Positions 41,901 to 60,563 of a DNA stretch of 60,563 nt are shown piece after piece (the stretch's first letter is position 1; each line of letters begins with the position of its first letter). A program made the position numbers and the translations under genes. Origin of the DNA: Catajapyx aquilonaris. Lineage: Eukaryota. The notes beneath the pieces were generated by a model. That model saw only the letters and a list, made by a program, of their open reading frames with translations. It made no database searches and had not been told where the DNA came from. The stretch is from positions 1-60,563 of the forward strand of contig KZ538579.1 of assembly GCA_000934665.2 (NCBI GenBank), written 5' to 3'.

Positions 41901-44900
41901 TGTCCCGGAATATGCGGAGTCAACGCCGAGTGTCAGGTACGTGCGTTACACCGAGGTTAATGAAATGTAGGTAACATTGTGTCCGTCGCAGGTGTCCAAC
42001 CACATTCCGACGTGCTTCTGCAAACAAGGCTACGTCGGCGATCCGTTCACTTCGTGCCACTTCCCAGAGCCAACTCCGCCACCGAAAACGGACACCAACC
42101 CATGCTTCCCATCGCCATGCGGTCCGTACAGCCAGTGCCGTGACAGTGGCGGTACCCCAGTGTGTTCCTGTCTGCCTACGTACGTCGGTAGCCCGCCTAG
42201 ATGCCGTCCCGAGTGCGTGGTGAGCTCGGACTGCCGACTGGACCAAGCCTGCCTGAACCACAAGTGCGTCGATCCATGTCCGGGAACATGCGGATTGGGC
42301 GCCCTCTGCAAGGTGTTGAACCACAATCCGATATGTTCATGCCCTCCGAACTACAGCGGAGATCCATTCACACGATGCGTACCGTTCGAGCCATGTAAGT
42401 ACGTTCATAACATGTACGCAATAACGACTAATCGCGATTAATTCGACAGCCACTCCAAGCCCTGGAACTGAGCGGACTCCGACGCCATGTCATCCGTCAC
42501 CATGCGGTTCGCACAGCAACTGCACCGCTGTAGGCGACAGGCCGGTGTGTACGTGCCTCGAAGGATACGTTGGAGGGCCTCCGAACTGCAGGCCAGAGTG
42601 CACGTTGAGCTCCGAGTGTTCGCCGTTCCTGGCTTGCGTTCAGTACAAGTGCAGGGATCCATGCGTCGGACTGTGCGGAGAGAACGCGGAGTGTCGCGTG
42701 GTGGCCCATACCCCGATGTGCATCTGCAACCATGGGTACCAAGGAGATGCTTTCTTCGGATGCAACCTAATACGTAAGCCGATTCAATTATCAAGTTGCG
42801 GCATTATTGTACATGTTCAAATTGCAGCTAAGGAAAAGCCGAATCCGTGCAACCCATCCCCTTGCGGCACCAACGCGGAATGCCGCCAGCACAACGATGC
42901 TGCGTCTTGTTCGTGCATCGCTCCGTACCAGGGCGACCCGTACAGCGGCTGCCGACCTGAGTGTGTCCGCAACGACGAGTGCGCCCCTCGATTTGCATGC
43001 ATCAACACCCGATGCCAGGACCCGTGTGTGGGCACCTGCGGCACCAACGCTCAGTGCCATGTGGTCAACCACATCCCGACATGCAGCTGCAGTCCTGGGT
43101 ACGAAGGCAACCCGTTCTCCGGATGCGCTCCAATCCCGGAGCGGACGACTCCGCAGCCGCCGGTACGCGACCCATGCAGCCCGTCACCATGCGGCCCGTA
43201 CAGCCAATGCCGAAACCTGCAGAACCACGCCGTCTGCAGCTGCCAACCCGAGTACATCGGAAGTCCCCCGAGCTGCCGTCCGGAGTGCTTCCACAGCGGC
43301 GAGTGTCCACTAGAAAGAGCGTGCATCAGACAAAAGTGCCAGGACCCATGTCCCGGAACATGCGGAATCCAAGCCGTCTGCAGAGTCGTCAACCACAATC
43401 CGATATGCAGCTGTCCGCCCGGATTCAACGGAGATCCGTTCGTCGCCTGCGAGCTGCAAACAAGTGAGTTTATATTGTCCGTAAGCGAAACTGGAGGTGA
43501 CGCTGTCCGTTTCCAGCGCCTGCTCCGGAGAGAGGGACGCCGCCGCCTGATGTCAACCCGTGTGTGCCGTCCCCATGTGGACCGTACGCCGACTGCCGTG
43601 TGTCCAGCGGACGTCCGGTGTGTTCATGCCAACCGAACTATCTGGGGGCACCGCCCAACTGCCGTCCGGAATGCATCGTCAACTCGGACTGCGGACCCAA
43701 CAAGGCCTGTCTGACGGAGAAGTGTCGCGACCCCTGTCCGGGAGCATGCGGAACCAACGCCAGATGCGAAGTCCGATCCCACACTCCGTCCTGTGCCTGC
43801 CTGCCGAACTTCGAGGGCGATCCGTTCGCCGGATGCGTACCCATAGTGGACAGTAAGTGCCTTCCCTTTCTTCCAGCTTTCGGACATTGCTGTCCCACCA
43901 GTTGCTAGATGCCACGAATGTTTCAGTTCCACCTGCACGGCCGTGTTCCCCGTCCCCGTGTGGGGCAAACGCAAAGTGTACGGAGCGGAACGGGGCAGGT
44001 TCATGCACCTGTTTCCCGGAGTATTACGGCGACCCGTACGTGGGTTGCCGTCCGGAGTGTGTCATGAACTCAGAGTGTCCCCGGAACAGGGCGTGTGTCA
44101 GCAACAAATGTCGCGACCCCTGCCCCGGGCTGTGCGGCCCCAATGCCGTTTGCAGCGTGATCAATCACGTGCCGACCTGCGCTTGCTTCGAAGGATATAC
44201 CGGCAACCCTCTCTCTGCATGCCATGCTATCCCACGTAAGCTCTCCTCTCATTTTCATTTTCCGCAGTGGTTTTGCATGCTTATCTTTTCTTATTCAGCT
44301 CCAAAAGTGTTTCCTATCGGGCCGTCTGACCCGTGCGTTCCGTCCCCATGCGGACCGCACAGTCAGTGTCGGGCTCTGAATGGGTACGCGGTATGCTCAT
44401 GCCGGCCCAGCTACATCGGTAGCCCTCCAGGATGCCGACCCGAGTGTGTGGTCAGCTCCGAGTGCTCCTTGGAAAAGGCATGCTTAGACCTGAAGTGTCG
44501 CGACCCATGCCCCGGAACATGCGGAATCAGCGCAGTCTGCAGAGTCGTGAACCACAACCCGATATGCAGCTGCCCTCCAGGCCTCACTGGAGATCCTTTC
44601 TCTCGCTGTCTTCCAGAGCCAAGTACTTCCTTGCAATTCTATATCTTTATTTTCCAGGGGAATGCATGTTCTGTCAATGCTGTCTTTTTCTAGCTCCTCC
44701 TATAGACGACCGTGTCCATGCGGACCCTTGCGTGCCCTCCCCATGCGGGCCTTACTCGCAGTGTCAGGTCAGGGGTCAGCAGCGTGCATGCTCTTGCCTC
44801 TCTGGATACCTAGGCCGCCCTCCCAACTGCAGGCCCGAGTGCACCATAGACGCGGAGTGCCCTGCCAACTTGGCATGCCTCTGCGAAAGGTGCACTGACC

Positions 44901-47900
44901 CTTGCCCCGGAGCCTGCGGGTTCAATGCCCTGTGCTCCGTGTTTGGGCACAGGCCCAGGTGCTCCTGCTCTCCCGGACACACGGGGGATCCATTTCACGG
45001 ATGCTCTCCTATCCGGCCAAGTAAGGATGCGACCGACTCCTAACGTATTAACCCTATAACATATGTCACACACGATGCAAACACACATTACAGCCACCGC
45101 GGCTCCCAGAAACCCATGCCGGCCGTCCCCATGCGGCGCAAATGCAAAGTGCGTTACGCGTAGCCATGCGGGCGCCTGCGTGTGCCTCCCGCAGTACTTC
45201 GGCGACCCGTACTCCGGGTGCAGGCCGGAGTGCGTCCTCAATTCGGAGTGTCCTCGAGCCAAGGCGTGTGTCGGCAACAAGTGTCGCGACCCTTGCCCAG
45301 GTCTATGCGGTCAAAATGCCCTCTGCAATGTCATCAACCACATCCCCACTTGCTACTGCCTCCCTGGTTTCACTGGTAATCCAGTCTCTTCTTGCCAGTC
45401 TATTCCACGTAAGAACAACTCTTCTCTCTTTAATCACTGTGTACATTTTGTACTTTTAATTTTCACCTTGTGTATACATTTATCTGTGCAAAACACACAA
45501 CGGAAGATCTTTACTACTTGGCAACGAAAGTGGCTGTAGTCGTGACTGAGCCACAATAACATTCGTTGGTTGGGTTACATGACCCACATTAATCGCAATT
45601 AACTGAAATTATCGTGCTAATTAACCCTTCTGTGGCTGGACCATTCCGAGTGCGTTCAAATGAGCATCTCGCCATGGCAAGGCCACAATAACGTTCATTT
45701 CCCTGTGGCGCCACAAACGTACATAACCCACATTAAAGCATTTGATTCCGCGTCTCTCTGTTTGGGGCCGTTGCCAAGGCTGGCGGCCAAGTGGGGGCAA
45801 CGCCAACGAGGTATCAATAGAGTACAGGCAACTACATGGCGGGTGAATCAAAGATGGCGCACCCTATTTTTTGCCTGTACCCTATTGATACCTCGTTGGC
45901 GTTGCCCCCACTTCAATATGGCCCCAAACAGAGAGACGCGGAAATCGAATGTTTGCGCCTCTTATGTGTAGTATATGCTCCCTGGTTATACATGACCCAC
46001 AGTAAGCGCAATTAACTGAAATTATCGTGCTAATTAACCCTTCTGTGGCTGCACCATTCTGAGTGCGTTGAAATGAGCATCTCGCCATGGCAAAGCCACA
46101 ATAACGATCATTTGCCTGTGGCGCCACAAACGTACTTGATACAGTTACATAACCCGCATTAAGCACCCAGCTCCGCGCATTTAACTAAAATTATCATGCT
46201 AATTAACGGACCCTGCTGTGGCAACACCACAATAACGTTCGTTGCCCTACCAAAATCTAGTATAATTGTTGTGGTCGTATGAGATAACCCACAATAAGTT
46301 GTTCAATTAACTAAAATCATCGTGGAGCGCTTCGGAATGGGCATCTCGCCATGGCTAAGCCACAGAAACGTTCGTTGATGTGCAGCACCACAACTTGTAC
46401 AGTAATTTTTGTGATTGTTGATGTAACTGCGCAAGAATTACTGTACGTTGTGCAGCTGCAGGCCAACGAACGTTATTGTGGCTTTCCCACCGCGAGCTGC
46501 ACTTCGCCGCGTAGTAAAGATCAGCCGTTTCTTCTCCTGTGCAATTCTTGCTGTACTTTGCTCACACTTTGCTCACACGACAGCACCTGACCCGAGGCCT
46601 CAAGTAAAACTGAGGAGGCCATGCGACAAGAGCCCGTGCGGCCCATTCAGCACCTGCGAGGACAAGTCCGGTTTCGCAGTGTGCAAATGCGCTCCCGGAT
46701 ATTCCGGGCTGCCTCCGTCGTGCAGACTGGAGTGCCTGACCAGTGCGGACTGTCCGTTAGACAGAGCCTGCCTGAGTAACCGATGCAAAGATCCGTGCAT
46801 AGGCACATGCGGTTTGTACGCGCAGTGCAAGGTCCTGAGGCACAGCGCACTTTGCACCTGCCAACCCGGACACACCGGAGATCCATTCGCGCAATGCACT
46901 CCTACCACTAAGAGTAAGCCCTCTCTCTCTCTCTGTACATGTACTTGTCTCTTAACATCTCTCTTCGCACCTCTTCTAGCTGCACTCTCACCTGACCCAT
47001 GCCTTCCCTCCCCATGCGGACCATACTCTGTTTGCATTGTGACCCGTAACGGACCCGCCTGCTCCTGTACCCCCGGGTGTCTGGGTCGACCCCCACACTG
47101 CAGACCCGAGTGTCTCCAAAACCACGAATGCCCCGCAGCATTAGCCTGCGTCCAGAAACGTTGCCGAGACCCCTGTCCCGGAGCCTGCGGACCCAACGCC
47201 GCATGTCGGTGTCAGAACCACCTCCCGGTTTGCTCCTGCAAACCCGGATTCAGAGGAGACCCATTCCGCGCTTGCATACCTGTACCCACATGTAAGTCCA
47301 CACACACACGTACACCCACAGGGTATCTGGCTAACCGCGCAACTAAAATCATAACCAGGATGTTACATTGACCAGTCCACAATATGTAATGTGTAATCTG
47401 TACAGCTCCGACGGACAAGACGAGGACAGCGTGTGATCCGTCCCCATGTGGGGCGAACGCAAAGTGCACAGAGCGCAACGGAGCGGGTTCATGCACTTGT
47501 TACCCAGAGTACTTTGGCGACCCTTACGTTGGGTGCAGGCCAGAGTGCATCGTGAACTCAGAGTGCCCCCGGAACAAGGCCTGTGTCAGCAACAAATGTC
47601 GTGACCCCTGCCCCGGAGTGTGCGGCCCCAATGCCCTCTGCTCCGTTGTAAATCACGTGCCCACCTGCTCTTGCTTTGAGGGGTACACAGGCAACCCTCT
47701 CTCTGCATGTCATCCTGTCCCACGTAAGAAATTGCATGTTGTGCATGTCTGCATGTCACTTACTTTTTTCCTTCTGTAGCACCCAAGGTACATAAACCGC
47801 AGGACCCGTGTGTGCCATCCCCATGCGGACCACACAGTCAGTGTAGAGCACTGAATGGGTACGCGGTATGCTCATGCCTTCCCAACTACGTCGGAAGCCC

Positions 47901-50900
47901 ACCTGCATGTCGACCTGAATGTGTGGTCAGCTCCGAGTGCTCATTACAAAAGGCATGTGTAGACCAGAAGTGTCGTGACCCTTGCCCTGGAACATGCGGA
48001 ACCAACGCTGTCTGCCGTGTGGTCAACCACAATCCAATCTGCAGCTGCCCTCCAGGTCACGAAGGCGACCCATTCAGTCGATGCCACCCAGAGCAAAGTA
48101 TTAGTCTCCACATTTTTCCCATCACAAATGCATGTTGACCTTTCCGTTTCGCAGCTACCCATGCGACCAAAGAGAAGGTCAATCCGTGTGTGCCGTCACC
48201 CTGCGGACCATACGCGCTGTGTGTGATCAAAGGCGCAGGCCATGACCTTCGACCTGGTTGCTCGTGTCTGGCTGGATTTGTAGGAAGGTATCCGAACTGC
48301 CGCCCTGAATGCACTTCCGACCCTGAATGCCCTTCGAATCTGGCTTGCATTGCCGAGAAGTGTCGTGACCCTTGCCCCGGAGCATGCGGGTCAAACGCCC
48401 AGTGCACCGTAGTGGGTCACAGGCCACGTTGCGCATGTGTGCCCGGATTTCAAGGCGATCCATTCTCAGGCTGCTATCCAATCCCTGAAAGTAAGAATTT
48501 GTAGCCCAAAATTTGTAGCCAAAATGTATGTTCAATATCAATTTTGCAGCAACTACAGTAGTAGTCCCAGTGGAAAGATTACAACCTTGCAATCCATCCC
48601 CGTGCGGTGCAAATGCAAAGTGCGAGGAACGTAACGGAGCAGGTTCGTGCACTTGTCTTCCCGAGTATTTCGGCGACCCTTACGCTGGGTGCCGACCCGA
48701 GTGCGTGGTCAACTCAGATTGCTCCAGGTCAAAGACTTGCTTCAGCAGCAAGTGCCACGATCCGTGTCCAGGGCTGTGTGGTTACAATGCCGAATGTGCC
48801 GTTTTGAACCACGTACCCACATGTAGTTGCCGCGTAGGATACACCGGCGATTCGTACTCTGCATGTCATCTTATCCCACGTAAGAGCATGTCCTATTGCA
48901 TGTAATTGCATGTAATTGCTTTTTTCCCCCCCTCTTAGCTCCAACTACAGCAAGACCCTCTGTACAAGACCCATGCTTGCCGTCCCCATGCGGTCCTCAC
49001 AGTCAGTGTAGGAATTTGAATGGGTACGCCGTATGTTCATGTAATCCTGCGTACGTTGGAAGCCCGCCCAACTGCAGGCCAGAGTGTGTGGTCAGTGCAG
49101 AGTGTCCGCTGGACAGGGCGTGCGTAGGCCAAAAATGCAGCGACCCATGTCCCAAAACGTGCGGAAGGAACGCCCACTGCAGGGTCGTGAACCACAACCC
49201 GATATGCAGCTGCCCTCCAGGTCACGCTGGTGACCCCTTTTCCGCATGCCATCTGAGTAAGATCCCTTTTGCATGTTGGCTCGTACGGTATGTCACCTTT
49301 GCATGTTCTTATCCCCCACTTGCAGCTCCGCCTGTCACTGATCCGCCTCGAGCGAACCCATGTGCACCTTCCCCTTGTGGCCCGCACTCTCAGTGTCAGG
49401 TCAAAGGTCAGCACCCTGCATGCTCTTGCTCCCCTGGATATGTCGGGCGACCTCCAAACTGCAGGCCCGAGTGCACCATAGACGCAGAGTGCCCTGCGAG
49501 TCTTGCATGCATAAACGAAAGGTGTGGCGACCCTTGCCCCGGAGCATGTGGCGTCAATGCCCAATGCTCGGTCATAGGTCACAGGCCTAGATGTACGTGC
49601 CTGACTGGATACCAAGGAGATCCGTTCTCAGGCTGCTTCCCAGTCCCTGAAAGTAAGTGTTGCAAGCGACTAACCCCGGACACATGTAAATTTCCCCCAT
49701 TGTTTCAGCAACTACGCAAAGTCCTAAGGAACACCGCGATCCTTGCCAGCCGTTTCCATGCGGCTTCAATGCCAAATGCGAGGTCCGAAACGGTGCAGGT
49801 TCATGCTCATGTCTGCCCGAGTACTTCGGCGACCCTTACATTGGCTGCCGACCTGAATGCGTCACCAACTCGGATTGCGTCCGGAGCAAAAACTGCCTGA
49901 GTAACAAGTGTAGGGACCCATGCCCAGGGTTATGCGGACCAAACGCTGAATGCCATGTGTCCAACCACGTCCCAACATGTAGCTGCATTGTAGGGTACAC
50001 CGGGGATCCGTTCACTGCATGTCATCCTGTCCCACGTAAGCTTAAAATTGATGGTACGTGTAGTACAAGTGAATGACCCTTCCTTTGCATGCAGCTCCAA
50101 CAAAGAGTGGACCTGACCTCCCTGTAGACCCTTGCGTACCGTCCCCATGCGGACCGCACAGTCAGTGTCGGAACCTGAATGGGTACGCGGTATGCTCATG
50201 CGAACCAGAGTACGTAGGAACCCCTCCTGCATGTCGACCCGAGTGTGTGGTCAGCTCCGAGTGTTCCCTGGAAAAGGCTTGCATCAAGCGTAGATGCAGT
50301 GACCCTTGTCCAGGAACATGCGGTCAGAATGCCCACTGCAAGGTCGTGAACCACAATCCAATCTGCAGTTGCCCTCCGGGTCACACTGGCGACCCTTTCG
50401 CTGCATGCTACCCACGGAAGAGTAAGTGTCCCCTATTTGCATGTGCCTGTACATATAATATTGCATGTGTTGCCTTGCATGTGTAGCAATTGGGCACGAA
50501 GGAGGTGCTCCGCCCAACCCTTGCGTGCCCCCACCATGCGGACCCTACTCCCAGTGCAGGGTCAAAGGTCACCAGCCTGTATGCACCTGTTCCCCCGGAT
50601 ATGTCGGACGCCCCCCGAACTGCAGGCCTGAGTGTTCAATCGACGCTGAATGTCCTTCGAACCTTGCTTGTCTGTCCGAACATTGTCGCGACCCTTGTCC
50701 CGGAGCATGTGGACTCAATGCGAAATGCACAGCGTTCAATCACAGGCCGCAATGCTCATGTCTGCCTGGTTATCACGGAGACCCGTTCTCCGCATGTTCA
50801 TTGGTACCCACACGTAAGCGTCTGACGATGCAAATTTATGGCCATCCCAAACTAATTGATTGGTATTTCTTGCAGCAACTCAACGGCCTCCAGACACACG

Positions 50901-53900
50901 GATTAACCCGTGCGAGCCATCGCCTTGCGGTGCCAACGCCAAGTGTACGGAGCGGAATGGCGCAGGAGCCTGCGCGTGTCTTCCTGAATACTTCGGCGAT
51001 CCATACGTCGGCTGCAGACCTGAATGTGTCGTCAACACAGACTGCCCTCGTACTAAGGCTTGTGTTAGCAACAAATGCAGCGACCCATGTCCTGGCCTCT
51101 GTGGATCCAACGCTGAATGCCAAGTGCGGAACCATGTGCCTAGCTGTACCTGTCTGGTCGGGTACACCGGTAACCCACTCTCGTCGTGCAACCCAACACC
51201 TAGTAAGTACCGCAATTTACGTACCCAGTACATCTGTTACATATGGTTATCATTACAGCGACTCCTCCGAAAGTACTGCCCGACACCGACCCATGCCTGC
51301 CATCACCGTGCGGTCCATACAGCCAGTGCCGTGCTCTCAATGGGTACGCGGTATGCTCATGCGAACCAGGGTATGTCGGAGCCCCACCGGGATGCAAGCC
51401 GGAGTGCGTCGTGAGTTCAGAGTGCAGCCTGGAGAAGGCCTGTCTGGAGCTCAAATGTCGCGACCCATGCCCTGGAACGTGCGGTAGAAACGCGCAATGC
51501 AAGGTCGTCAACCACAATCCCATCTGCAGCTGTCCGATAGGCCACACTGGAGATCCCTTCACGGCATGTCTGCCTGAAATAGGTAGGTAGTTGACATTAA
51601 TGGTGCTACATTCGCCAGTACGACACCATTAATGTGATCAGCCAGTGTCATTTACTAACATGCTGATTTTCATCTGCAGTGACCTCATCTGAGAGGACTC
51701 CGGTTGACCCCTGCGTGCCTTCCCCATGTGGACCATACTCCCAGTGCCAGGTCAAAGGTCAGCATCCGGCCTGCTCCTGCTCGCCCGGATACATTGGACG
51801 CCCGCCGAACTGTCGTCCTGAATGTGCGATCGACCCTGACTGTCCACCCAACCTGTCCTGTCTCTCCGAGAAGTGTCAAGACCCATGCCCCGGGGCGTGT
51901 GGCAGCCTGGCCGTGTGTCGCGTGTCGAGTCATCGCCCGCAATGCGCGTGTCCACCAGGATACACAGGAGATCCGTACTCAGGATGCTACCAGATCCCGG
52001 AAAGTAAGTTCGCATGCATTTTTTTGTTGGGTTCGGCATTTATTCACTACTACTTTTCTGACTCGAGTTCTGTCATGACGCGACCGTATAACCCCCAAAA
52101 AAATAACCGGACCGACCCTATGCAATTAACACGACGGTTAATTGTTACAATGACGTTTCAGCAACAAGCCAGAAAACGTACCTTCCCGAAACAAGGAACC
52201 CGTGTTCCCCGTCTCCATGTGGGGCGAACGCAAAGTGCACTGAGCGCAACGGAGCGGGTTCATGCACTTGTTACCCAGAGTACTTTGGCGACCCTTACGT
52301 TGGGTGCAGGCCAGAGTGCATCGTGAACTCAGAGTGCCCCCGGAACAAGGCCTGTGTCAGCAACAAATGTCGTGACCCCTGCCCCGGAGTGTGCGGCCCC
52401 AATGCCCTCTGCTCCGTTGTAAATCACGTGCCCACCTGCTCTTGCTTTGAGGGGTACACAGGCAACCCTCTCTCTGCATGCCACCTCCTTCCACGTAAGG
52501 CTGATTTGTCTTGTTTCTGTTGCATGTATTTTGCATGATCACTTTTCTGTCCAGCTGTGACCAAGGCCCCGCCACTTCCCGACGCTGACCCCTGTGTGCC
52601 ATCCCCATGCGGACCACACAGTCAGTGTAGAGCACTGAACGGGTATGCCATTTGCTCGTGCCTTCCCAACTACGTCGGAAGCCCTCCTGCATGTAGACCC
52701 GAGTGTGTGGTCAGCTCCGAATGTTCCCTGGAAAAGGCATGTCTTGACCTCAAGTGTCGTGACCCCTGCCCCGGAACATGCGGAACCAACGCTGTCTGCC
52801 GTGTGGTCAACCACAATCCAATCTGCAGCTGTCCTCCAGGCCTTGCAGGAGATCCATTTGTTCGCTGCCTTCCCCAGCCAAGTACTTTATATGCCTTTTC
52901 ACTCTCTGATTTTGTCAGTGTACCCGTCAAACGTGGTGAGATTGTGCCAGGTTGGGTGAGATTGTCCCAGATGGGGTGAGATTGTGCCAGATGGGGTGAG
53001 ATTGTGCCAGATGGGATGAGATTGTGCCAGGTGGAGTGAGATTGTGCCAGTTGTGGCGAGATTGGGCCAGATGATGTGAGGTTGGGCCAGGTAGGGATGA
53101 GATTGGGTCAGGTGGGGTGAGATTGTGCCAGATGGGGTGAGATTGTGCCAGTTGTGGCGAGATTGGGCCAGATGAGGTGAGGTTGTGCCAGTTGTGGCGA
53201 GATTGTGCCAGAGGGGGTGAGATTGGGTCAGGTGGGGATGAGTTGGGCCAGGTAGGGATGAGTTGTGCCTGGTCGGGGGTGAGATTGGCCAGCGCATTTT
53301 TGGGATAACAGTGCCCTGCTGGCAGCAAGCGAATTTAGGCATGTTTCACTAATACATTGAGGAATGGTTAAGGTTGGCAATGACGTGGTAGGGCGCACTG
53401 TTGTCCCCCCTCGAAAAATGGCACAATCTCACCACGTTTGACGGGTATGTGAGCTAGAATCTATGACCTTGCATGATTTTCTGTCTCTCTCTTTCTTTGA
53501 CTCCAGCTCCTCCAGTCCGAGGTCACGAAGACAGAGACCGCGTCAGTCCCTGCGTCCCCTCCCCTTGCGGTCCCTTCTCCCAGTGTCAGGTCAAGGGTCA
53601 GCAACCCGCTTGCTCGTGCCTCTCCGGGTACGTGGGCCGTCCCCCCACCTGCCGTCCGGAATGCTCCATTGACCCCGAGTGCCCCAGCAACCTGGCTTGC
53701 GTCACGGAGAAGTGTCGCGACCCTTGCCCCGGAGCATGCGGGTCAAACGCTCAGTGCTCGGTGTTTGGTCACAGACCAAGATGTTCCTGTTTGCATGGCT
53801 TTCAAGGAGACCCCTTCTCGGGCTGCTATCCCATCCCGGAAAGTAAGGCCTTCTATGTTTCCTTACACCACTAATATAAACCGGACTCACCAACCCCACA

Positions 53901-56900
53901 CACTAATCAGAGAGATCCCAATGGTGACAACAATGATCACACGCTTCCAATCAAGTTATTTAAAGCAATTGAAAGTATCCCATGGAGGATCGCATATTTT
54001 AATGCTCATGCCTTTTTTTGTTGAAAAAAGCATTACAGGAGCATTAAAATGTGTAATGCTCCATGGGAGACTTGAGTAGTTGCGGCTTTCAGTGAAATTC
54101 TTGCGAACAATGTTAGTGTATAAACGTTTTTGCCGATTAGCAATACGTGCAAATATTTCAAAAAATTAATGAGCATTATTAGAATATAATGCTCACAATT
54201 CAGCGCAAAGTTTATACATGCTTCCTATTTACATGAATATCCGGAATCATACTGTAGATTTCGCCACGCCATTTTTTTTGGCAGGAGTCCTATGATGTGC
54301 TTAGTTATAAAAATTATTACATTTATTTATGCGAAGTAATTACATATTTTGAACACATAATTGGCAGCCATGAAAGAGCTTTATGCTCATTCTGAAAGGA
54401 CATAATAATGTCGCACCAGGATTTTAACAAATTAGTAATCTTAGATGACATTCTGAGATTGTACTGTACATTACCCTGTACTTACGAGCGTATTATAAAA
54501 TTAATGCCACGTATTATTTATGCAATAATCACGCGTTTTTCTGCCCATAATTGGCAGAGTAATGAAGGAGCTTTATGCTCATTCTGAGAGGACAAAATGT
54601 TGCACCAGGATTTTTAGGTATAGTAATCGAAGATGACTGAGATTGTACATGACCCTGTACAGTTCTAATTACTAAAACAATTATTATCAGCAGCCATTTG
54701 GTTCACCTACATATTTGTGGTTTTTGCAAAAATTGAAAGCAACATATTTTTGACACCTGTTGTATAGATCAATATGATGATAAATTAAAGGCCACACGTT
54801 TCTTTGACCAAACCAATAGCACATAACATACTAAGAGGACCACTCATTCTGTTGGGAACATACCGCTGTCATAATTAGCATTCACTTGGGTTCCCCCAGG
54901 ATTTTTGGTCTCTGCACTAAAAAGTGTGTAACCAATTCGTAACAAGTCACTAAGCAAACTGACAACTAACGCGATTAAAACTTGACTGATCATTATTTCA
55001 GCAACCACATCAATTCCGAAAGAATTAGGAAACCCATGCGACCCGTCGCCATGCGGGTCAAATGCAAGGTGTCAGGAGAGGAATGGGGCGGGTGCTTGTA
55101 CCTGTCTGCCCGAGTATTTCGGCGACCCGTACGTCGGTTGTCGTCCTGAATGTGTCACCAACTCAGATTGCGATAGGACCAAGAACTGCGTCAGCAACAA
55201 ATGCAGGGACCCGTGCCCCGGGTTATGCGGACCAAACGCGGAATGCCATGTGTCCAACCACGTGCCGACATGTAGTTGCATCGTAGGATATACCGGTGAC
55301 CCATTCTCCGCATGTCATCCCATACCACGTAAGGTTGTATAGCCTGGGGATTGGTTGGGGGAGACTTAGAAATGCTTTCTGTGTTGTAGCCCCGACCAAA
55401 CGACCACCTGAGGTGCGCGACCCTTGCGTACCGTCCCCATGCGGTCCGCACAGCCAGTGCAGGAACCTCAATGGGTACGCTGTGTGCTCATGCAATCCCA
55501 CGTACATTGGAAGCCCTCCTGCATGTCGACCCGAGTGTGTGGTCAGCTCCGAATGTTCCCTGGAGAAAGCATGCCTTGACCGGAAATGTCGCGACCCTTG
55601 CCCCGGAACATGCGGTCAGAATGCCATCTGCAGGGTGGTGAACCACAATCCGATCTGCAGCTGCCCTCCAGGTCACGAGGGTGACCCGTTCGTTGCATGC
55701 CATCCCCAGCCCAGTAAGCTCTGTCCGTTGTCCAGTGTTGAGGTCACTTTATTGCATGTTGCATGTCTTGCTTCAGCTCAACCCACAAAGGATGTGAGGC
55801 CACCCAACCCTTGCGTGCCTTCCCCATGCGGACCCTACTCCCAGTGCCAGGTCAAAGGTCAGCAGCCCGCCTGCTCATGCTCGCCTAGATACGTCGGACG
55901 TCCTCCAAACTGCCGTCCGGAATGCACAGTGGATTCGGAATGCCCTTCGAATCTGGCCTGCATATCCGAAACATGTCGTGACCCTTGCCCCGGAGCATGC
56001 GGGTCAAACGCGCAATGCACTGTGTTCAACCACAGGCCCAGATGCTCGTGTGTACCAGGCTACCAAGGAGATCCTTTCTCCGGATGCTACCCACTCCCGG
56101 AGAGTAAGTCATAAATTAATTGTGCGCATTGAACTTGTAGGTATAACGGCTTCTACTTTGGTGAGCTAGGCACGACTCAAACTCCTAAGGAATATGCGAC
56201 CCCATGCAATCCATCCCCATGCGGTGCAAATGCCAGGTGCGAGGAACGTAACGGTGCAGGTGCATGTACCTGCTACCCTGAGTACTTCGGCGATCCGTAC
56301 GTCGGTTGTCGTCCTGAATGCGTCACCAACTCTGATTGCGATAGGACCAAGAACTGCGTCAGCAACAAGTGCAGGGACCCATGCCCCGGATTATGCGGAC
56401 CAAATGCGGAATGTTACGTTTCAAACCACATACCGACATGTAGCTGCATTGTAGGGTTCACCGGAGATGCGTTTTCAGCGTGTCATCCCATACCACGTAA
56501 GAGAGCCTAAGGTTGCATTGTGTTGAGCATGTTTAGTAACCACCATTTGCATGGTCCAGCTTCCACCACGGTCAGACCTGAAAAAAGTGACCCTTGCGTA
56601 CCGTCCCCATGCGGTCCGTACAGCCAGTGCAGGAACCTCAATGGCTATGCTGTATGCTCATGCGAACCAACGTACATTGGAAGCCCTCCTGCATGTCGAC
56701 CCGAGTGTGTGGTCAGCTCCGAATGTTCCCTGGAGAAAGCATGTCTTGACCGGAAATGTCGCGACCCTTGCCCCGGAACATGCGGGAGGAACGCCCACTG
56801 CAGGGTCGTGAACCACAACCCGATATGCAGCTGCCCTCCAGGTCACGCTGGTGACCCCTTCTCTGCATGCTACCCCCAACCGAGTAAGCAACTTTTTTCC

Positions 56901-59900
56901 TTTTATTTCTATTTTTTCCATCTTGAGTGCATGACCTTCTCTTTCTCCAGCTCCTCCTCCAGAAAGGGAGGATCCCACAAGAAACCCATGCGTGCCTTCT
57001 CCATGCGGTTCGTATTCGCAGTGTCAGGTCAAAGGTCAGCAGCCTGCATGCTCCTGCTCCCCTGGATATATCGGGCGACCTCCAAACTGCAGGCCCGAAT
57101 GCACATCCGACCCCGAATGCCCTTCGAATCTGGCTTGCATTACTGAGAAGTGTCGTGACCCTTGCCCCGGAGCATGCGGGTCAAACGCCCAGTGCACCGT
57201 GGTGGGTCACAGGCCACGTTGCGCGTGTCTGCCCGGATTCGAAGGCGATCCATTCTCAGGGTGTTTGCCCATGCAAAGTAAGATCATTTTGACAATGTTC
57301 ATTCCACCAGCAGATTAGTCACACCAGTGCATTGTTGCAGCAACTACTGAAATACCGAGGGAGCACCGTACTCCTTGCGAGCCATCCCCATGCGGTTCTA
57401 ATGCCAGGTGCGAGGAACGAAACGGTGCGGGTTCATGCACCTGTTTGCCCGAGTATTTCGGCGACCCTTACTCTGGGTGTCGACCCGAGTGTGTGGTCAA
57501 CTCTGATTGCGATCGGACCAAAACCTGCAACAACCACAAATGCACTGACCCATGCCCCGGATTGTGCGGACCAAACGCTGATTGCCATGTGTCCAACCAC
57601 ATCCCGACATGTAGCTGCATTGTAGGGTACACCGGTGATCCGTTCACTGCATGTCATCCTGTCCCACGTAAGTACACAGGTCAAAAGGTCGAGAGGTCAA
57701 GTTGTAACGCGGTTTGTCCACGCAGCGTCAACCACTGGACGACCTGAAAGAAGCGACCCTTGCGTACCGTCCCCATGCGGTCCGTACAGCAAGTGCAGGA
57801 ACTTGAATGGGTATGCGATATGCTCGTGTGACCCCGGATACGTGGGGTCACCACCTGCATGTCGACCCGAGTGTGTGGTCAGCTCTGAATGCCCCTTAGA
57901 GCAAGCATGTCTTGACCGGAAATGTCGCGACCCTTGCCCCGGAACATGCGGAAGGAACGCCCACTGCAGGGTCATCAACCACAATGCGATATGCAGCTGC
58001 CCTCCAGGTCACACGGGTGACCCCTTCTCATCGTGCCATCCTGAACCGAGTAAGATAAGCCTCTTGCATATCCGGATTCCCGTTAATTTGTGATGCATGT
58101 TTTAGCTACACCGGTGAGAGGTCACGATTCGACCCCGAGACCCAACCCGTGCGTGCCCTCCCCATGCGGGCCCTACTCCCAGTGCCAGGTCAAAGGTCAG
58201 CAGCCTGCATGCTCCTGCTCCCCTGGATATGTCGGGCGCCCTCCAAACTGCCGACCTGAATGCACTTCTGACCCCGAGTGCCCTTCCAATCTGGCCTGCA
58301 TTGCCGAGAAGTGTCGTGACCCTTGCCCCGGAGCATGCGGGTCAAACGCCCAGTGCACTGTGCACAACCACAGGCCCAGATGCTCGTGTCTGCCAGGCTA
58401 CCAAGGAGATCCTTTCTCCGGATGCTACCCGGTGCCAGAAAGTAAGGCTCGTCATTTCGACCTGTTGTTGTGACCCTTGACCGTTGTTGTGGATTTTCAG
58501 CATCCCCGCATCCAACACCGGATCATAGAAACCCGTGCGATCCAACCCCATGTGGGGCCAATGCCAAATGCGAAGAGCGTAACGGTGCAGGAGCGTGTAC
58601 TTGCTTTCCGGAATACTTCGGCGACCCTTACGTCGAATGCAGGCCCGAATGCGTCACCAACTCTGATTGCGATCGAACCAGAAATTGCGTCAGCAACAAA
58701 TGTCGTGACCCATGCCCCGGATTATGCGGGCCAAATGCGGAATGCTTTGTCGCAAACCACATCCCGACATGTAGCTGCATTGTAGGCTACACCGGAGATC
58801 CTTTCACCGCATGTCATCCTGTCCCACGTAAGCATGTTTTTGATTTGGGTGAACGTTGCATGTGTTAAGCCTTTCTCTTTGCATGGTCCAGCTTCCACCA
58901 CGGTCAGACCCGAAAAAAGTGACCCTTGCGTACCGTCCCCATGCGGTCCGTACAGCCAGTGCAGGAACCTCAATGGGTATGCGATATGCTCATGCAATCC
59001 TACGTACATTGGAAGCCCTCCTGCATGTCGACCTGAATGTGTAGTGAGCGCTGAATGTTCATTGGAAAAGGCATGTGTTGACCGAAAATGTCGTGACCCA
59101 TGCCCCGGAACATGCGGAAGGAACGCCCACTGCAGGGTCGTGAACCACAACCCGATATGCAGCTGCCCTCCAGGTCACGCTGGTGACCCCTTCTCTGCAT
59201 GCTACCCCCAACCGAGTAAGCCCATACTTTTCTTGTGTTGAGTGCATGATTGCATGATTTCTGTTCCCGTAGCTCCTCCTCCAGAAAGAGAAGATCCTAC
59301 AAGAAACCCGTGCGTGCCCTCCCCATGCGGGCCCTACTCGCAGTGCCAGGTCAAAGGTCAGCAGCCTGCATGCTCCTGCTCCCCTGCATACGTAGGCCGC
59401 CCACCCAACTGCCGACCAGAGTGCTCCACCGACCCTGAATGTCCAGCCAACCTGGCCTGCATATCCGAGAAATGTCGTGACCCTTGCCCCGGGGCATGCG
59501 GGTCAAACGCCCAGTGCACTGTGCACACCCACAGGCCCAGATGTTCGTGTATTCCAGGCTACCAAGGAGATCCATTCTCTGGATGCTTCCCCGTACCGCA
59601 AAGTAAGGCTTCATTTGACTGGTTAGTAGGGTGTGCAATCATGTGACTGGTTATTTCAGCAACTCCTCCAACTAAGGAGCATGTCAGACCGTGTGACCCC
59701 TCGCCATGTGGGTCAAATGCGAAATGCGAGGAAAGAAATGGGGCGGGTGCTTGCACATGTCTGCCCGAATATTTCGGCGATCCGTATGTCGGGTGCAGAC
59801 CCGAGTGTGTCACTAACACTGATTGTGACAGGACCAAGAACTGCGTGAATAATAAGTGCAGGGATCCGTGTCCAGGATTATGCGGGCCAAACGCGGAATG

Positions 59901-60563
59901 CTTCGTCTCGAATCATATCCCGACTTGTAGCTGCATCACAGGCTACACCGGAGACCCTTTCACAGCATGTCATCCCGTACCACGTAAGCATGTGTGTGCA
60001 TGACCATGTTGCATGTGTTTGACCTCTTGCATGTTGCAGCTTCTACCCAAGCGCCACCTGAAGTGCGTGACCCTTGCGTACCGTCCCCGTGCGGTCCGTA
60101 CAGCCAGTGTAGGAACCTCAATGGCTATGCGATATGCTCATGCAATCCCACGTACGTTGGAAGCCCTCCTGCATGTCGACCCGAGTGTGTGGTCAGCTCT
60201 GAATGTCCCTTAGAGCAAGCATGTCTTGACCGGAGATGTCGTGACCCCTGCCCCGGAACATGCGGAAGAGATGCCCTCTGCAGGGTCATGAACCACAACC
60301 CCATCTGCAGCTGCCCTCCAGGTCACACCGGTGACCCCTTCTCTGCATGTTATCCCCAGCCCAGTAAGGCCCCTCTCAGCATGATTTGTTTAAAAAATAT
60401 CCCAGCATGATGCATGAACTTCTCTTTCTCCAGCTACTTCTCCAGAAAAGGAAGGTCCGACCAGAAATCCATGTGTGCCCTCCCCATGCGGTCCGTATTC
60501 TCAGTGTCAGGTCAAAGGCCAGCAGCCTGCATGCTCGTGCACTCTGGGCTACACAGGTCGTCC
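2887..60563 (+). CDS. dpy: Dumpy orthologue (giant EGF/DPY-module apical extracellular matrix protein), multi-exon, 3'-partial; 76 coding exons traced, ~10,000 aa in window
   Basis: The N-terminal motifs FFLNLEDGYFGCQVN..LQLFELSKLCDG..C..SDEL..ELKC, DVNECKYRPCDVFSHCTNTLGSF and AARCVPNAECCNLPAHFVCKC match my recollection of the Drosophila Dumpy N-terminus. There are hundreds of EGF repeats and C-x5-C-x5-C-x4-C (DPY) modules. All inferred introns are GT-AG and exon phases chain without a frameshift. Confidence 0.93.
2978..3300. repeat. Tandem ~100-bp repeat (3 units; another unit at ~4185-4270)
   Basis: Recurring tcaaaatggc...tttgtgatggaaatggtgaaaaatgcgggaaata...gcaatta. Confidence 0.7.
3311..3546. 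mobile_element. MITE family M7 (TIR AACGA[AG]C[AG]CAACCGAGTGCGCA), copy 1
   Basis: aacgagcacaaccgagtgcgca ... tgcgcactcggtcgagctcg; same TIRs at 5466-5683 and 14057-14541. Confidence 0.6.
3560..4140. repeat. AT-rich low-complexity region with ~30-bp tandem units
   Basis: attatttacgagtgttaatatttatta repeated at 3935-4100. Confidence 0.85.
5466..5683. mobile_element. MITE family M7, copy 2
   Basis: tttgaacgaacgcaaccgagcgtgca ... tgcgcactcggttgctctcgtaaaa; interior similar to 14440-14500. Confidence 0.65.
5691..5826. mobile_element. TA-flanked MITE family M1, short copy
   Basis: TA|CCGTCAAACGGGGTGAGATTGTGCCAGC ... GCTGGCACAATCTCACCACGTTTGACGG|TA. Confidence 0.85.
8426..8632. mobile_element. 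mariner-type MITE family M4, copy 1 (207 bp)
   Basis: TA|CAGGGTGGTCCAAGTTCAAGTGTCGTTTTATAACGGCGATTAATAG ... CTTGGACCACCCTG|TA; nearly fully palindromic. Confidence 0.9.
10043..10439 (+). CDS. dpy: dumpy coding exon 2, conserved N-terminal domain plus first EGF
   Basis: ORF 10028..10528, acceptor tttcag|GTA, donor G|gtcagt; contains the LNLEDGYFGCQVN motif. Confidence 0.93.
10460..10990. repeat. Minisatellite, ~50-60-bp unit (~10 copies), directly after the exon 2 donor
   Basis: aaggtagcagacctgaa...tagcctccaagagag..cctcactta repeated. Confidence 0.85.
11490..11499. other. Assembly gap (10 N) inside a poly-G run; single Ns also at 280 and 3491 in poly-C runs
   Basis: N characters in the sequence. 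Confidence 0.95.
12030..12430. repeat. A/T-rich low-complexity tract
   Basis: (aataa)n-like sequence. Confidence 0.8.
12703..12819 (+). CDS. dpy: dumpy coding exon 3, Ca-binding EGF (DVNECKYRPCDVFSHCTNTLGSFFCTCFPGYEGDGTNCR)
   Basis: Acceptor tttccag, donor G|gtacag, 117 nt, phase 1-1. Too short for the ORF track; read directly from sequence. Confidence 0.92.
14057..14541. mobile_element. MITE family M7, copy 3, containing a nested M5 element
   Basis: M7 TIRs at both ends; the 14208-14438 insert has its own TIRs. Confidence 0.65.
14208..14438. mobile_element. MITE family M5 (TIR CTGCCGTCAGATGTGAGAAGACCGTAACTC), copy 1
   Basis: Terminal inverted repeats; interior is the reverse complement of 17331-17562. 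Confidence 0.8.
15771..16110. mobile_element. MITE family M2, full-length copy with 7-bp target duplication ATACAGC
   Basis: ATACAGC|CATGGAGCATATA ... TATATGCTCCCTG|ATACAGC (15764-15770 and 16111-16117). Confidence 0.85.
16192..16411. mobile_element. hAT-type MITE (220 bp) with 8-bp TSD CCAACGTG
   Basis: CCAACGTG|CAGAGGTGGGCACAGCTAAC ... GTTAGCTTGCCCAGCTCTG|CCAACGTG; it interrupts an R3 repeat whose empty site is seen at ~5310-5345. Confidence 0.88.
17331..17562. mobile_element. MITE family M5, copy 2 (inverted relative to copy 1)
   Basis: ctgccgtcagatatgagaagaccgtaactc ... gagttacggtcctctcgcatctgacggcag. Confidence 0.8.
17683..17889. mobile_element. mariner-type MITE family M4, copy 2 (207 bp)
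   Basis: TA|CAGGGTGG ... CCACCCTG|TA; same length as and highly similar to 8426-8632. Confidence 0.9.
17910..18062. repeat. GATATCCA[CT].GGA[CT].TC-type repeat element, copy 1
   Basis: Same motif family as 22087-22345. Confidence 0.55.
18490..19050. repeat. Tandem repeat, 5 units of ~108-115 bp
   Basis: Unit aacgaatt.atagttcctcccgcccaccagaggcgctgtctccacccattgcgcatgcgtagaacgcgagccaatcggaagcgtcgcggtaacaa. Single relatives at ~7225-7272 and ~8205-8300 (reverse). Confidence 0.92.
19126..23606 (+). CDS. dpy: dumpy coding exons 4-13, tandem Ca-binding EGF region
   Basis: Exons 19126-19257, 19336-19451, 19512-19764, 19935-20198, 20375-20494, 20556-20930, 20986-21474, 21561-22073, 22392-22577, 22635-23606. 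D[IV][DN]EC...C.N..GS[FY].C.C repeats, GT-AG introns, consistent phases. Confidence 0.92.
22087..22345. repeat. ~22-bp tandem repeat (gtagatatccacaggatgtc-like) in intron 11
   Basis: Recurring gatatcca[ct].gga[ct][ag]tc units. Confidence 0.75.
23663..26593 (+). CDS. dpy: dumpy coding exon 14, 2931-nt EGF/DPY exon
   Basis: Core of ORF 23647..26646 (999 aa); acceptor cattacag, donor G|gtacgt. Confidence 0.92.
26615..27192. repeat. Dispersed GCCACAATAACGTTCGTTG motif repeats in both orientations
   Basis: Over 10 copies of gccacaataa / ttattgtggc; the same motif occurs at 29420-29770, 45550-46485 and ~17596. Confidence 0.75.
27233..32852 (+). CDS. dpy: dumpy coding exons 15-25, EGF/DPY region
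   Basis: Exons 27233-27386, 27444-27964, 28018-28214, 28272-28569, 28628-29359, 29812-30324, 30382-30583, 30638-31274, 31333-31780, 31835-31969, 32079-32852. Phases 1/2/0 chain correctly. Confidence 0.88.
29420..29770. repeat. 29-bp minisatellite (~7 units, gccacaataacgttcgttgtgattgcata) followed by inverted copies
   Basis: Directly visible tandem units in intron 19. Confidence 0.85.
33240..35390 (+). CDS. dpy: dumpy coding exon 26, Thr/Ser/Glu-rich (mucin-like) spacer flanked by DPY/EGF modules
   Basis: Acceptor tttccacag at 33239 opens the same frame as ORF 33422..35482; donor G|gtaaaa at 35391. 2151 nt, phase 1-1. Position is analogous to the Ser/Thr-rich region of insect Dumpy. Confidence 0.85.
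35870..36330. repeat. ~40-bp tandem repeat (~11 units, cgctgagcgaattgttcacatgcaaatgcggcaacaattg)
   Basis: Tandem units visible in intron 26. Confidence 0.85.
36503..40688 (+). CDS. dpy: dumpy coding exons 27-35
   Basis: Exons 36503-36721, 36787-36873, 37552-38076 (Thr/Ser-rich plus EGF, weak acceptor), 38340-38522, 38577-38777, 38833-39123, 39179-39397, 39453-39611, 40248-40688. All phase 1-1 with lengths divisible by 3. Confidence 0.84.
39746..40155. mobile_element. Possible PIF/Harbinger-like MITE
   Basis: gggcacgtttacatg ... catgtaaacgcggc imperfect TIRs with internal tcgctcacatgtaa repeats; TSD unclear. Confidence 0.4.
41056..43852 (+). CDS. dpy: dumpy coding exons 36-40, first EGF-DPY-EGF modules (proto A/B/C)
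   Basis: Exons 41056-41936, 41992-42394, 42450-42773, 42828-43463, 43517-43852; PC.PSPCG...CRPEC..NSDC...KAC...KC.DPCPG.CG repeats. Confidence 0.9.
43927..45020 (+). CDS. dpy: dumpy array triplet 1 (A 43927-44235, B 44299-44622, C 44694-45020)
   Basis: Three phase 1-1 exons of 309/324/327 nt, each one EGF-DPY-EGF unit. Confidence 0.9.
45094..47291 (+). CDS. dpy: dumpy array triplet 2, divergent (A 45094-45408, B 46584-46913, C 46980-47291)
   Basis: 315/330/312 nt, phase 1-1. Confidence 0.87.
45575..46210. repeat. ~150-bp direct repeats (45575-45735, 45988-46135, partial 46146-46207) flanking an M2 MITE
   Basis: acatgacccac...aattaactgaaattatcgtgctaattaacccttctgtggctg...gcgccacaaacgtac is duplicated. 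Confidence 0.8.
45745..45984. mobile_element. MITE family M2, copy 3 (left end truncated)
   Basis: Ends ...gtttgcgcctcttatgtgtagtatatgctccctg, as does the copy ending at 16110. Confidence 0.8.
47406..48490 (+). CDS. dpy: dumpy array triplet 3 (A 47406-47723, B 47780-48097, C 48155-48490)
   Basis: 318/318/336 nt, phase 1-1. Confidence 0.9.
48550..49652 (+). CDS. dpy: dumpy array triplet 4 (A 48550-48879, B 48939-49256, C 49326-49652)
   Basis: 330/318/327 nt, phase 1-1. Confidence 0.9.
49709..50813 (+). CDS. dpy: dumpy array triplet 5 (A 49709-50035, B 50095-50421, C 50487-50813)
   Basis: 327/327/327 nt, phase 1-1. Confidence 0.9.
50876..52003 (+). CDS. dpy: dumpy array triplet 6 (A 50876-51202, B 51259-51582, C 51680-52003)
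   Basis: 327/324/324 nt, phase 1-1. Confidence 0.9.
52162..53842 (+). CDS. dpy: dumpy array triplet 7 (A 52162-52494, B 52555-52881, C 53507-53842)
   Basis: 333/327/336 nt, phase 1-1; the B-C intron carries a MITE. Confidence 0.9.
52923..53445. mobile_element. MITE family M1, long copy with an internal 20-bp minisatellite (~18 units)
   Basis: TA|CCCGTCAAACGTGGTGAGATTGTGCCA ... TGGCACAATCTCACCACGTTTGACGGG|TA; tandem GGTGAGATTGTGCCAG.TGG at 52934-53292. Confidence 0.9.
54356..54660. repeat. Local ~120-bp direct duplication (54356-54481 and 54546-54660)
   Basis: cataattggcag...gagctttatgctcattctga.aggaca...gcaccaggatttt...gagattgtac...accctgtac occurs twice. Confidence 0.75.
55002..56103 (+). 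CDS. dpy: dumpy array triplet 8 (A 55002-55328, B 55390-55713, C 55777-56103)
   Basis: 327/324/327 nt, phase 1-1. Confidence 0.9.
56170..57277 (+). CDS. dpy: dumpy array triplet 9 (A 56170-56496, B 56560-56883, C 56951-57277)
   Basis: 327/324/327 nt, phase 1-1. Confidence 0.9.
57341..58441 (+). CDS. dpy: dumpy array triplet 10 (A 57341-57667, B 57726-58049, C 58106-58441)
   Basis: 327/324/336 nt, phase 1-1. Confidence 0.9.
58501..59602 (+). CDS. dpy: dumpy array triplet 11 (A 58501-58827, B 58892-59215, C 59273-59602)
   Basis: 327/324/330 nt, phase 1-1. Confidence 0.9.
59660..60563 (+). CDS. dpy: dumpy array triplet 12 (A 59660-59983, B 60040-60363, C 60434-end, truncated by window)
   Basis: 324/324 nt plus a partial C exon. 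Confidence 0.9.

Follow-up and report, generated by a model that had tools for sequence, protein, structure and literature searches.

The RNA hexamer UGCAUG is the element of the Fox-1/Rbfox splicing regulators, and the sections of two publications that deal with its position (PMC2777236; PMC2018636) describe Fox-1 elements in the upstream intron flank (UIF) as repressing the exon. Among the examples given in part of the first of these, a review, exon 4 of calcitonin/CGRP is preceded by a UGCAUG at -34 that blocks SF1 at the branch point, exon 9 of F1-gamma is repressed by several upstream GCAUG copies, and exon 5B of C. elegans egl-15 is repressed by an upstream UGCAUG together with GUGUG (PMC2777236). 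For intron VI of C. elegans xol-1, the portion of the study drawn on here reports that the number of motifs sets the dose response to FOX-1 (PMC7787662). The present analysis concerns the corresponding DNA hexamer, TGCATG, in the introns of a dumpy-like gene of Catajapyx aquilonaris located on contig KZ538579.1 (assembly GCA_000934665.2); the window, meaning the whole stretch of DNA that was analysed, comprises 60,563 nucleotides of the forward strand. An earlier interpretation of this DNA, made without database searches (the sequence-only reading), had named TGCATG as the Fox-1/Rbfox element, an identification that the relevant sections of the review support (PMC2777236). It had further proposed that the hexamer forms a position-specific, sense-strand code across an array of dumpy exons.

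One of the largest proteins of animals, Dumpy connects the cuticle with the trachea, the epidermis and tendon cells. The sequence-only reading stated that the Drosophila gene is heavily alternatively spliced, and alternative splicing is reported in the parts of PMC2930355 used here: reverse transcription PCR (RT-PCR) and genetic evidence indicates that some exons are skipped, exon lengths are divisible by 3, and the classic genetic complexity of the dumpy locus was proposed to result from alternative splicing. In the Catajapyx window, a large cysteine-rich dumpy-like gene occupies the plus strand from approximately 19 kb to the window end, and its 3' part is a tandem exon array in the strict order A-B-C with 12 units, as identified by tblastn periodicity. 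This array was annotated independently of the sequence-only reading, using tblastn with three reference exons followed by frame-aware GT..AG refinement, and it was found again with the same intron coordinates (Table 1). Each array exon encodes an EGF, a DPY and a second EGF module and is 312–336 nt in length, always a multiple of 3, and all 35 array introns (12 A-B, 12 B-C and 11 C-A) are in phase 1, so that exon skipping preserves the reading frame. The introns are mostly 56–97 nt in size, with three long ones of 625–1175 nt. The array continues past the 3' end of the window, and the C-terminus of the gene product, the part in which Dumpy carries a ZP domain and a transmembrane anchor, is encoded outside it.

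The A-B introns contain 15 sense copies of TGCATG distributed over 8 of 12 introns, and the B-C introns contain another 15 in 10 of 12. Together this gives exactly 30 copies in 18 of 24 introns, the figures estimated by eye in the sequence-only reading, whose individual counts of three copies each in three introns and two each in six are also correct. None of the 12 introns located before an A exon, namely the 11 C-A introns and that at 43853–43926, contains TGCATG, again as previously claimed. The shorter sense word GCATG occurs 19 times in A-B, 18 times in B-C and once in C-A introns. The reverse complement CATGCA, described earlier as rare, is found once in the A-B introns, where it overlaps a sense copy, once in the C-A introns and not at all in the B-C introns, giving a single antisense copy against 30 sense copies in the A-B and B-C introns. 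TGCATG is the most frequent hexamer in the short A-B and B-C introns, where it makes up 12% of all intron bases. The flanks of the motif tend toward T-TGCATG-T, with a T before 21 and after 19 of the 30 copies, and a T precedes 30 of the 37 GCATG words in these introns; a T (U1) at this position is a preference of Fox-1 proteins. Other Rbfox-type words (GCACG, GCTTG and others) exhibit no enrichment, and GCACG is absent from the A-B and B-C introns. From position 44236 onward there are 57 copies of TGCATG, of which 30 are those of the A-B and B-C introns, 26 lie within complete exons and one is in the truncated last exon.

This enrichment is far beyond chance. The 22 short A-B and B-C introns (1405 nt) hold 29 copies; 5000 dinucleotide shuffles average 2.0 copies and never exceed 8, and mononucleotide shuffles average 0.32. 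The 21 short introns predicted upstream in the same gene by an approximate gene model (1242 nt) hold a single copy, and positions 1–43852 of the window carry 26 sense and 25 antisense copies, or about 0.6 per kb on each strand. When introns rather than copies are counted, TGCATG is present in 18/24 A-B and B-C introns versus 0/12 introns before A exons (Fisher, p = 3e-5) and in 17/22 short A-B and B-C introns versus 1/21 upstream introns (Fisher, p = 1e-6).

With respect to placement, the 3'-most TGCATG ends 3–37 nt from the 3' splice site (3'ss) in 17 of 17 motif-bearing short introns, with a median of 17 nt, and 31 nt from it in the one long motif-bearing intron. Only this 3'-most motif is clearly acceptor-proximal, since the 3' bias of all motif positions taken together is not significant (mean relative position 0.59, p = 0.075). 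Co-occurrence in the two introns that flank the same B exon was likewise not significant, with 8 pairs in which both introns carry the motif, 2 with neither and 2 with a copy in the B-C intron only (p = 0.09). The branch site consensus YTRAY, sought between -45 and -10, is found in 1/12 A-B, 4/12 B-C, 7/11 C-A and 12/21 upstream introns, and the A-B and B-C introns contain more T and have a higher pyrimidine fraction than the C-A and upstream introns.

Homologous arrays from other lineages were collected by scanning metagenome contigs with a B-exon alignment, which provided 71 loci (L001–L071) in 15 similarity groups. The loci share the A-B-C periodicity, and 305 of 305 annotated introns are in phase 1. 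After deduplication, TGCATG is at background level and strand-symmetric in these loci, with 6 copies in 12.1 kb of A-B, 7 in 21.0 kb of B-C and 11 in 23.7 kb of C-A introns. Groups 2 and 4 exhibit the highest exon identity to the window (77–78% for A exons), and group 4 is mostly without the motif. Group 2 consists of ten closely related loci (L025, L040, L041, L050, L052, L054, L056, L061, L063 and L064) with AT-rich introns of 650–2900 nt, such as L040:2769–3502, 3821–4576, 5877–6601 and 6917–8518. A GCATG is located 7–36 nt upstream of the 3'ss in all four distinct A-B and B-C introns of this group, a placement with a rough chance probability of 2e-5, and its C-A introns have no GCATG in the last 70 nt and feature ordinary CTAAC- or GTAAC-like branch sites. 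Outside of group 2, GCATG is present in the last 50 nt of 0/39 A-B, 3/65 B-C and 0/47 C-A introns, and group 13 contributes just one B-C TGCATG, at a distance of 37 nt from its acceptor. The group 2 motif lies hundreds of nucleotides from the upstream donor and adjoins the acceptor, which indicates that the element goes with the B and C acceptors. The sequence-only reading had suggested looking for the same asymmetry between A-B/B-C and C-A introns in dumpy orthologues; it is present in group 2 and missing from nearly all of the 15 groups. Dumpy arrays as a class thus neither share the enrichment nor need the element, and the enrichment is lineage-restricted.

The reading preferred here is that the copies are Rbfox-type upstream-intron elements controlling, most likely repressing, the use of B and C exons, and we give it about an even chance of being right. 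This interpretation is plausible, fits the known positional rules and has some support from the second lineage; that Rbfox reads the motif, that it acts as a repressor and that the exons are alternatively spliced in the first place are inferences. The copies would act as (U)GCAUG RNA elements of the 3'ss region in the introns before B and C exons, and the candidate for the most likely reader is the Rbfox/Fox-1 protein of the organism. An upstream-intron element near the branch point and pyrimidine tract would occupy the classical repressive position. In cells expressing Rbfox, the B and C acceptors would be weakened, the donor of an A exon would join a later, motif-free A acceptor, and the B and C modules would be dropped in frame. 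Units with more motifs (0–3 per intron) would be expected to respond at lower Rbfox levels, and units 2 and 6 have none. The arrangement suggests an array in which cells could tune protein length by exon skipping. A stricter version, in which motif number encodes a length dial and rising Rbfox removes B and C exons unit by unit to give a shorter, A-enriched fibre, in frame, in particular tissues or stages, is doubtful; were it true, the acceptor-proximal (U)GCAUG of the second lineage would mean either two origins of the dial or an ancient origin followed by repeated losses. The proposal of the sequence-only reading that such a rheostat acts by tissue or moult stage to set the length and stiffness of the filament is speculation. 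Periodic, class-specific sites of the Rbfox type would supply a concrete cis code and a candidate trans factor for dumpy isoforms, and it would be unusual for one RNA-binding protein to address dozens of homologous acceptors in a single array of minimal introns. The patchy distribution among lineages would also offer a natural setting in which to study how splicing regulation is gained and lost.

Several observations weigh against Rbfox-type control of B and C exons. The multiple copies in four introns are micro-tandem repeats of 7–10 nt, which inflates the copy number and makes presence or absence per intron the sounder statistic. Motif positions are partly common to the young units, so that the 18 introns do not represent 18 independent events. 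Four A-B introns have neither the motif nor YTRAY, which leaves the argument from weak branch sites loose, and within the A-B and B-C introns the association of the motif with an absent YTRAY is not significant (p = 0.57). In introns of 56–70 nt the motifs are also no more than 60 nt past the end of an A or B exon, the usual activating position for Rbfox; since a motif in so small an intron is both upstream of one exon and downstream of another, the window taken alone is ambiguous as to the direction of the effect. Among the deduplicated homologous introns of up to 150 nt, TGCATG is present in 0/26 A-B, 1/46 B-C and 0/21 C-A introns. Six groups with a median intron size of 60–82 nt, similar to that of the window, contain no TGCATG at all. 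A regular (T)GCATG is lacking from the A-B and B-C introns of 14 of the 15 groups, and 13 of the 15 have none or stray copies only.

The copies could instead reflect a passive history, in which an ancestral unit with TGCATG in two introns was spread by duplication, gene conversion and slippage without selection. Such a history would fit the micro-tandem copies of the four introns and the micro-repeats present in motif-free introns (48496, 57678), as well as the TTTGCATG-g/t-t-CAG end shared by the A-B introns of units 9, 11 and 12 and the apparently recent conversion of exon A between units 3 and 7, whose p-distance at 4-fold silent sites (p4) is 0.06. Across units, however, the median p4 is 0.59, which is near saturation and corresponds to an expected neutral survival of the hexamer of approximately 5–16%, yet at least one copy persists in 18 of 24 introns, the remaining sequence of which is scrambled. 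Pairwise intron identity is approximately 0.45–0.70, taken as near the level of unrelated sequence without a computed baseline, and in the youngest units (8–12) the only alignable intron parts are the splice sites and the motif, in agreement with the earlier description of the introns as barely alignable. Copies of TGCATG lie anywhere between 3 and 50 nt from the acceptor, sense copies outnumber antisense ones by 30:1, and an unrelated lineage with long introns (group 2) has the same class-specific placement, all of which make a passive history very unlikely. A motif that is sense-specific and class-specific and is kept in otherwise saturated introns looks selected rather than passively copied, as the sequence-only reading had argued. 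It is retained among saturated paralogous units and present in one other lineage, with none or stray copies in most locus groups, and a selected sense-strand RNA element is the best reading of the TGCATG copies.

Selection on the hexamer would also be expected if the motifs were constitutive intronic splicing enhancers, acting through Rbfox or another factor on A-B and B-C introns with poor branch sites and causing no skipping. The rarity of YTRAY and the T-rich, pyrimidine-rich composition of these introns are consistent with that role, as is the presence of motifs in the first 60 nt after A and B exons, an activating position on the Fox-1 map in the part of the review that presents it (PMC2777236). 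It is made rather unlikely by the six A-B and B-C introns that lack the motif, four of which also lack YTRAY and are presumably still spliced, by the homologous short introns that do without the motif in most other lineages, and by group 2, in which the motif sits near the acceptor at a great distance from the upstream donor. There is only a slim chance that the selected hexamer is read by a non-Rbfox protein of similar specificity or acts by RNA-RNA pairing between introns that orders their removal. The T bias on both flanks could reflect a longer site, and the patchy distribution across lineages might point to another reader; to our knowledge, no other RNA-binding family has a (U)GCAUG site. 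In the sections of the review on the family, Fox-1 proteins from nematodes to mammals are defined by the (U)GCAUG site, which is highly conserved, and the one Drosophila Fox-1 orthologue has a nearly identical RNA recognition motif (RRM) (PMC2777236). Pairing is unlikely because the self-complementarity of TGCATG does not extend past 4 nt and the reverse complement is scarce, with the one copy noted above.

The exonic copies of TGCATG were also considered as part of the code and were set aside. The 26 copies in complete array exons are all in the frame nnT-GCA-TGY (Ala-Cys) and at conserved positions, one of which is 14 nt upstream of the A-exon and B-exon donors. The codon GCA is used for 50/84 Ala residues before Cys and for 29/127 elsewhere, and a bias toward NNA before TGY also holds for Pro, Thr, Ser and Val. 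Measured in the array exons (43927–60363) and the exons at 19–44 kb, the third position of 4-fold codons is A before Cys and elsewhere in 60% versus 23% of cases for Ala, 45% versus 25% for Pro, 46% versus 23% for Thr and 39% versus 17% for Val. The bias is general and includes the non-array exons (23/64 versus 39/274), so the exonic copies are explained mostly by NNA-TGY codon context together with common descent. Some excess remains in the array (p = 0.005, calculated over sites that are not independent).

Table 1. The dumpy-like exon array of the window and its introns, with the number and position of TGCATG copies
Feature	Coordinates	Strand	Remarks
A-B-C exon array	43927..60563	+	12 units; last C exon cut by window end
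A-B intron unit 1	44236..44298	+	63 nt; 1 TGCATG ending 19 nt from 3'ss
B-C intron unit 1	44623..44705	+	83 nt; alternative acceptor 44693; 1 TGCATG
A-B intron unit 2	45409..46583	+	~1175 nt, acceptor uncertain; 0 TGCATG
B-C intron unit 2	46914..46979	+	66 nt; 0 TGCATG; TTAAC branch-like site
A-B intron unit 3	47724..47779	+	56 nt; 3 TGCATG as 8-nt micro-tandem repeat
B-C intron unit 3	48098..48154	+	57 nt; 1 TGCATG, 20 nt from 3'ss
A-B intron unit 4	48880..48938	+	59 nt; 2 TGCATG (10-nt tandem repeat) and 1 extra GCATG
B-C intron unit 4	49257..49325	+	69 nt; 2 TGCATG
A-B intron unit 5	50036..50094	+	59 nt; 1 TGCATG, 3 nt from 3'ss (TGCATGCAG)
B-C intron unit 5	50422..50486	+	65 nt; 3 TGCATG
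A-B intron unit 6	51203..51258	+	56 nt; 0 TGCATG
B-C intron unit 6	51583..51679	+	97 nt; 0 TGCATG; CTAAC branch-like site within 'tactaac'
A-B intron unit 7	52495..52554	+	60 nt; 2 TGCATG
B-C intron unit 7	52882..53506	+	625 nt, donor uncertain; 1 TGCATG, 31 nt from 3'ss; 20-nt minisatellite
A-B intron unit 8	55329..55389	+	61 nt; 0 TGCATG
B-C intron unit 8	55714..55776	+	63 nt; 2 TGCATG (7-nt tandem)
A-B intron unit 9	56497..56559	+	63 nt; 1 TGCATG 6 nt from 3'ss and 1 GCATG
B-C intron unit 9	56884..56950	+	67 nt; 1 TGCATG, 17 nt from 3'ss
A-B intron unit 10	57668..57725	+	58 nt; 0 TGCATG
B-C intron unit 10	58050..58105	+	56 nt; 1 TGCATG, 6 nt from 3'ss
A-B intron unit 11	58828..58891	+	64 nt; 2 TGCATG and 1 GCATG in donor region
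B-C intron unit 11	59216..59272	+	57 nt; alternative acceptor 59284; 2 TGCATG (8-nt tandem)
A-B intron unit 12	59984..60039	+	56 nt; 3 TGCATG and 1 GCATG
B-C intron unit 12	60364..60433	+	70 nt; 1 TGCATG and 2 GCATG
Intron before first A exon	43853..43926	+	74 nt; 0 TGCATG
C-A intron	45021..45093	+	73 nt; 0 TGCATG
C-A intron	47292..47405	+	114 nt; 0 TGCATG
C-A intron	48491..48549	+	59 nt; alternative acceptor 48558; 0 TGCATG
C-A intron	49653..49708	+	56 nt; 0 TGCATG
C-A intron	50814..50875	+	62 nt; 0 TGCATG
C-A intron	52004..52161	+	158 nt; 0 TGCATG; 1 GCATG / CATGCA adjoining donor
C-A intron	53843..55001	+	long, 1159 nt; 0 TGCATG
C-A intron	56104..56169	+	66 nt; 0 TGCATG
C-A intron	57278..57340	+	63 nt; 0 TGCATG
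C-A intron	58442..58500	+	59 nt; 0 TGCATG
C-A intron	59603..59659	+	57 nt; 0 TGCATG

A separate small DP gene model recovered 33 of the 35 array introns. The model of the upstream part of the gene is approximate, and at least one of its predicted introns (19655–19728) resembles coding sequence, which makes the 21 upstream introns an imperfect control. Two further sense TGCATG copies are present in upstream introns and are possible elements outside of the array; the first, at 19321, precedes a predicted acceptor near 19335 by 9 nt, and the second, at 21500, is inside an 86-nt intron (21475–21560). The Pfam family Dumpy_DPY (PF21164) matches the reference A, B and C exons with 40.7–47.1 bits (cut-off 27) and the open reading frame (ORF) at 42425–43711, just upstream of the array, with 83.6 bits; DPY matches further upstream are weaker and below threshold. 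Matches to EGF_3 flank the DPY modules and exceed the 28.5-bit cut-off only in the A exon, 23611–26643 and 42425–43711. Protein-atlas neighbours are arthropod Dumpy/EGF clusters and serve as a lead only. No Rfam family matched the window at gathering thresholds. Similar ORF peptides at approximately 1990–2240, 15890–16110 and 45620–46010, and also at approximately 8506–8766 and 17763–18008, are possible dispersed repeats or transposon fragments, and the stretch at approximately 45620–46010 falls inside the long A-B intron of unit 2.

Exon A of unit 3 and that of unit 7 (47406–47723 and 52162–52494) differ at 6% of 4-fold sites, compared with 33–90% for other pairs of A exons, and the A-B introns downstream of them are only approximately 62% identical, a pattern suggestive of recent gene conversion limited to the exon. 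The short introns of the array often hold micro-tandem duplications of 7–14 nt that are unrelated to TGCATG (48496–48525, 57678–57700, 46948–46974 and 47381–47402), and slippage may be a general route by which these minimal introns turn over or keep their length. The long B-C intron of unit 7 contains a 20-nt minisatellite at 52935–53292 with 17.8 copies of the consensus GGTGAGATTGTGCCAGGTGG. In some of the homologous loci (e.g. L037 and L011) neighbouring modules are fused without an intron, for a total of 33 fused junctions, 17 of them A-B. A lower silent divergence of B exons was considered as a sign of selection at the RNA level and was dropped as too weak and confounded by gene conversion; the mean p4 is 0.43 for B compared with 0.55 for A and C when units 2 and 6 are excluded, and 0.55 compared with 0.61 and 0.58 for A and C, respectively, when they are included.

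No link of fly dumpy to Rbfox, A2bp1 or GCAUG was found in the literature searched, with the reservation that subscription papers and supplements may differ, and the matches for dumpy with Rbfox1, A2bp1 or GCAUG concerned only the worm Dpy phenotype or unrelated uses of the words. The terms 'dpy' and 'dumpy' do not occur in the eight supplementary files searched of a Drosophila Rbfox1 muscle paper (PMC8742874). The arrangement in the Catajapyx window is thus without a prior description in this literature. Drosophila dumpy has the same architecture of EGF and DPY modules, and differs in that the parts of its description used here name no cis element or regulator (PMC2930355).

In comparison with xol-1, both cases feature a restriction to particular introns. 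The parts of that study used here describe several high-affinity motifs clustered in one intron, with none in the other introns (PMC7787662), and the window has 0–3 motifs per A-B or B-C intron and none in the other intron classes (C-A and pre-A). The same parts describe both GCAUG and GCACG, a single intron of the 466-nt class and a non-productive splicing outcome (PMC7787662), whereas the present array has no GCACG in its A-B and B-C introns, spreads the motif over many introns and has predicted outcomes that remain in frame. The closest resemblance is to the UIF silencers of Fox-1/Rbfox, which in the sections describing them consist of sense (U)GCAUG, often in several copies, lying no more than a few tens of nucleotides upstream of the 3'ss and near the branch point (PMC2777236; PMC2018636). 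Those silencers flank cassette exons; here the 3'-most motif stands 3–37 nt from the B and C acceptors, with a putative role in splicing. Unlike the known silencers, the sites in the window recur periodically over at least 12 homologous exon triplets in introns of only 56–70 nt, where a site upstream of one exon inevitably also lies downstream of the one before it. Upstream-intron elements of the Rbfox type are known, and it is their periodic deployment along this array that is unusual.

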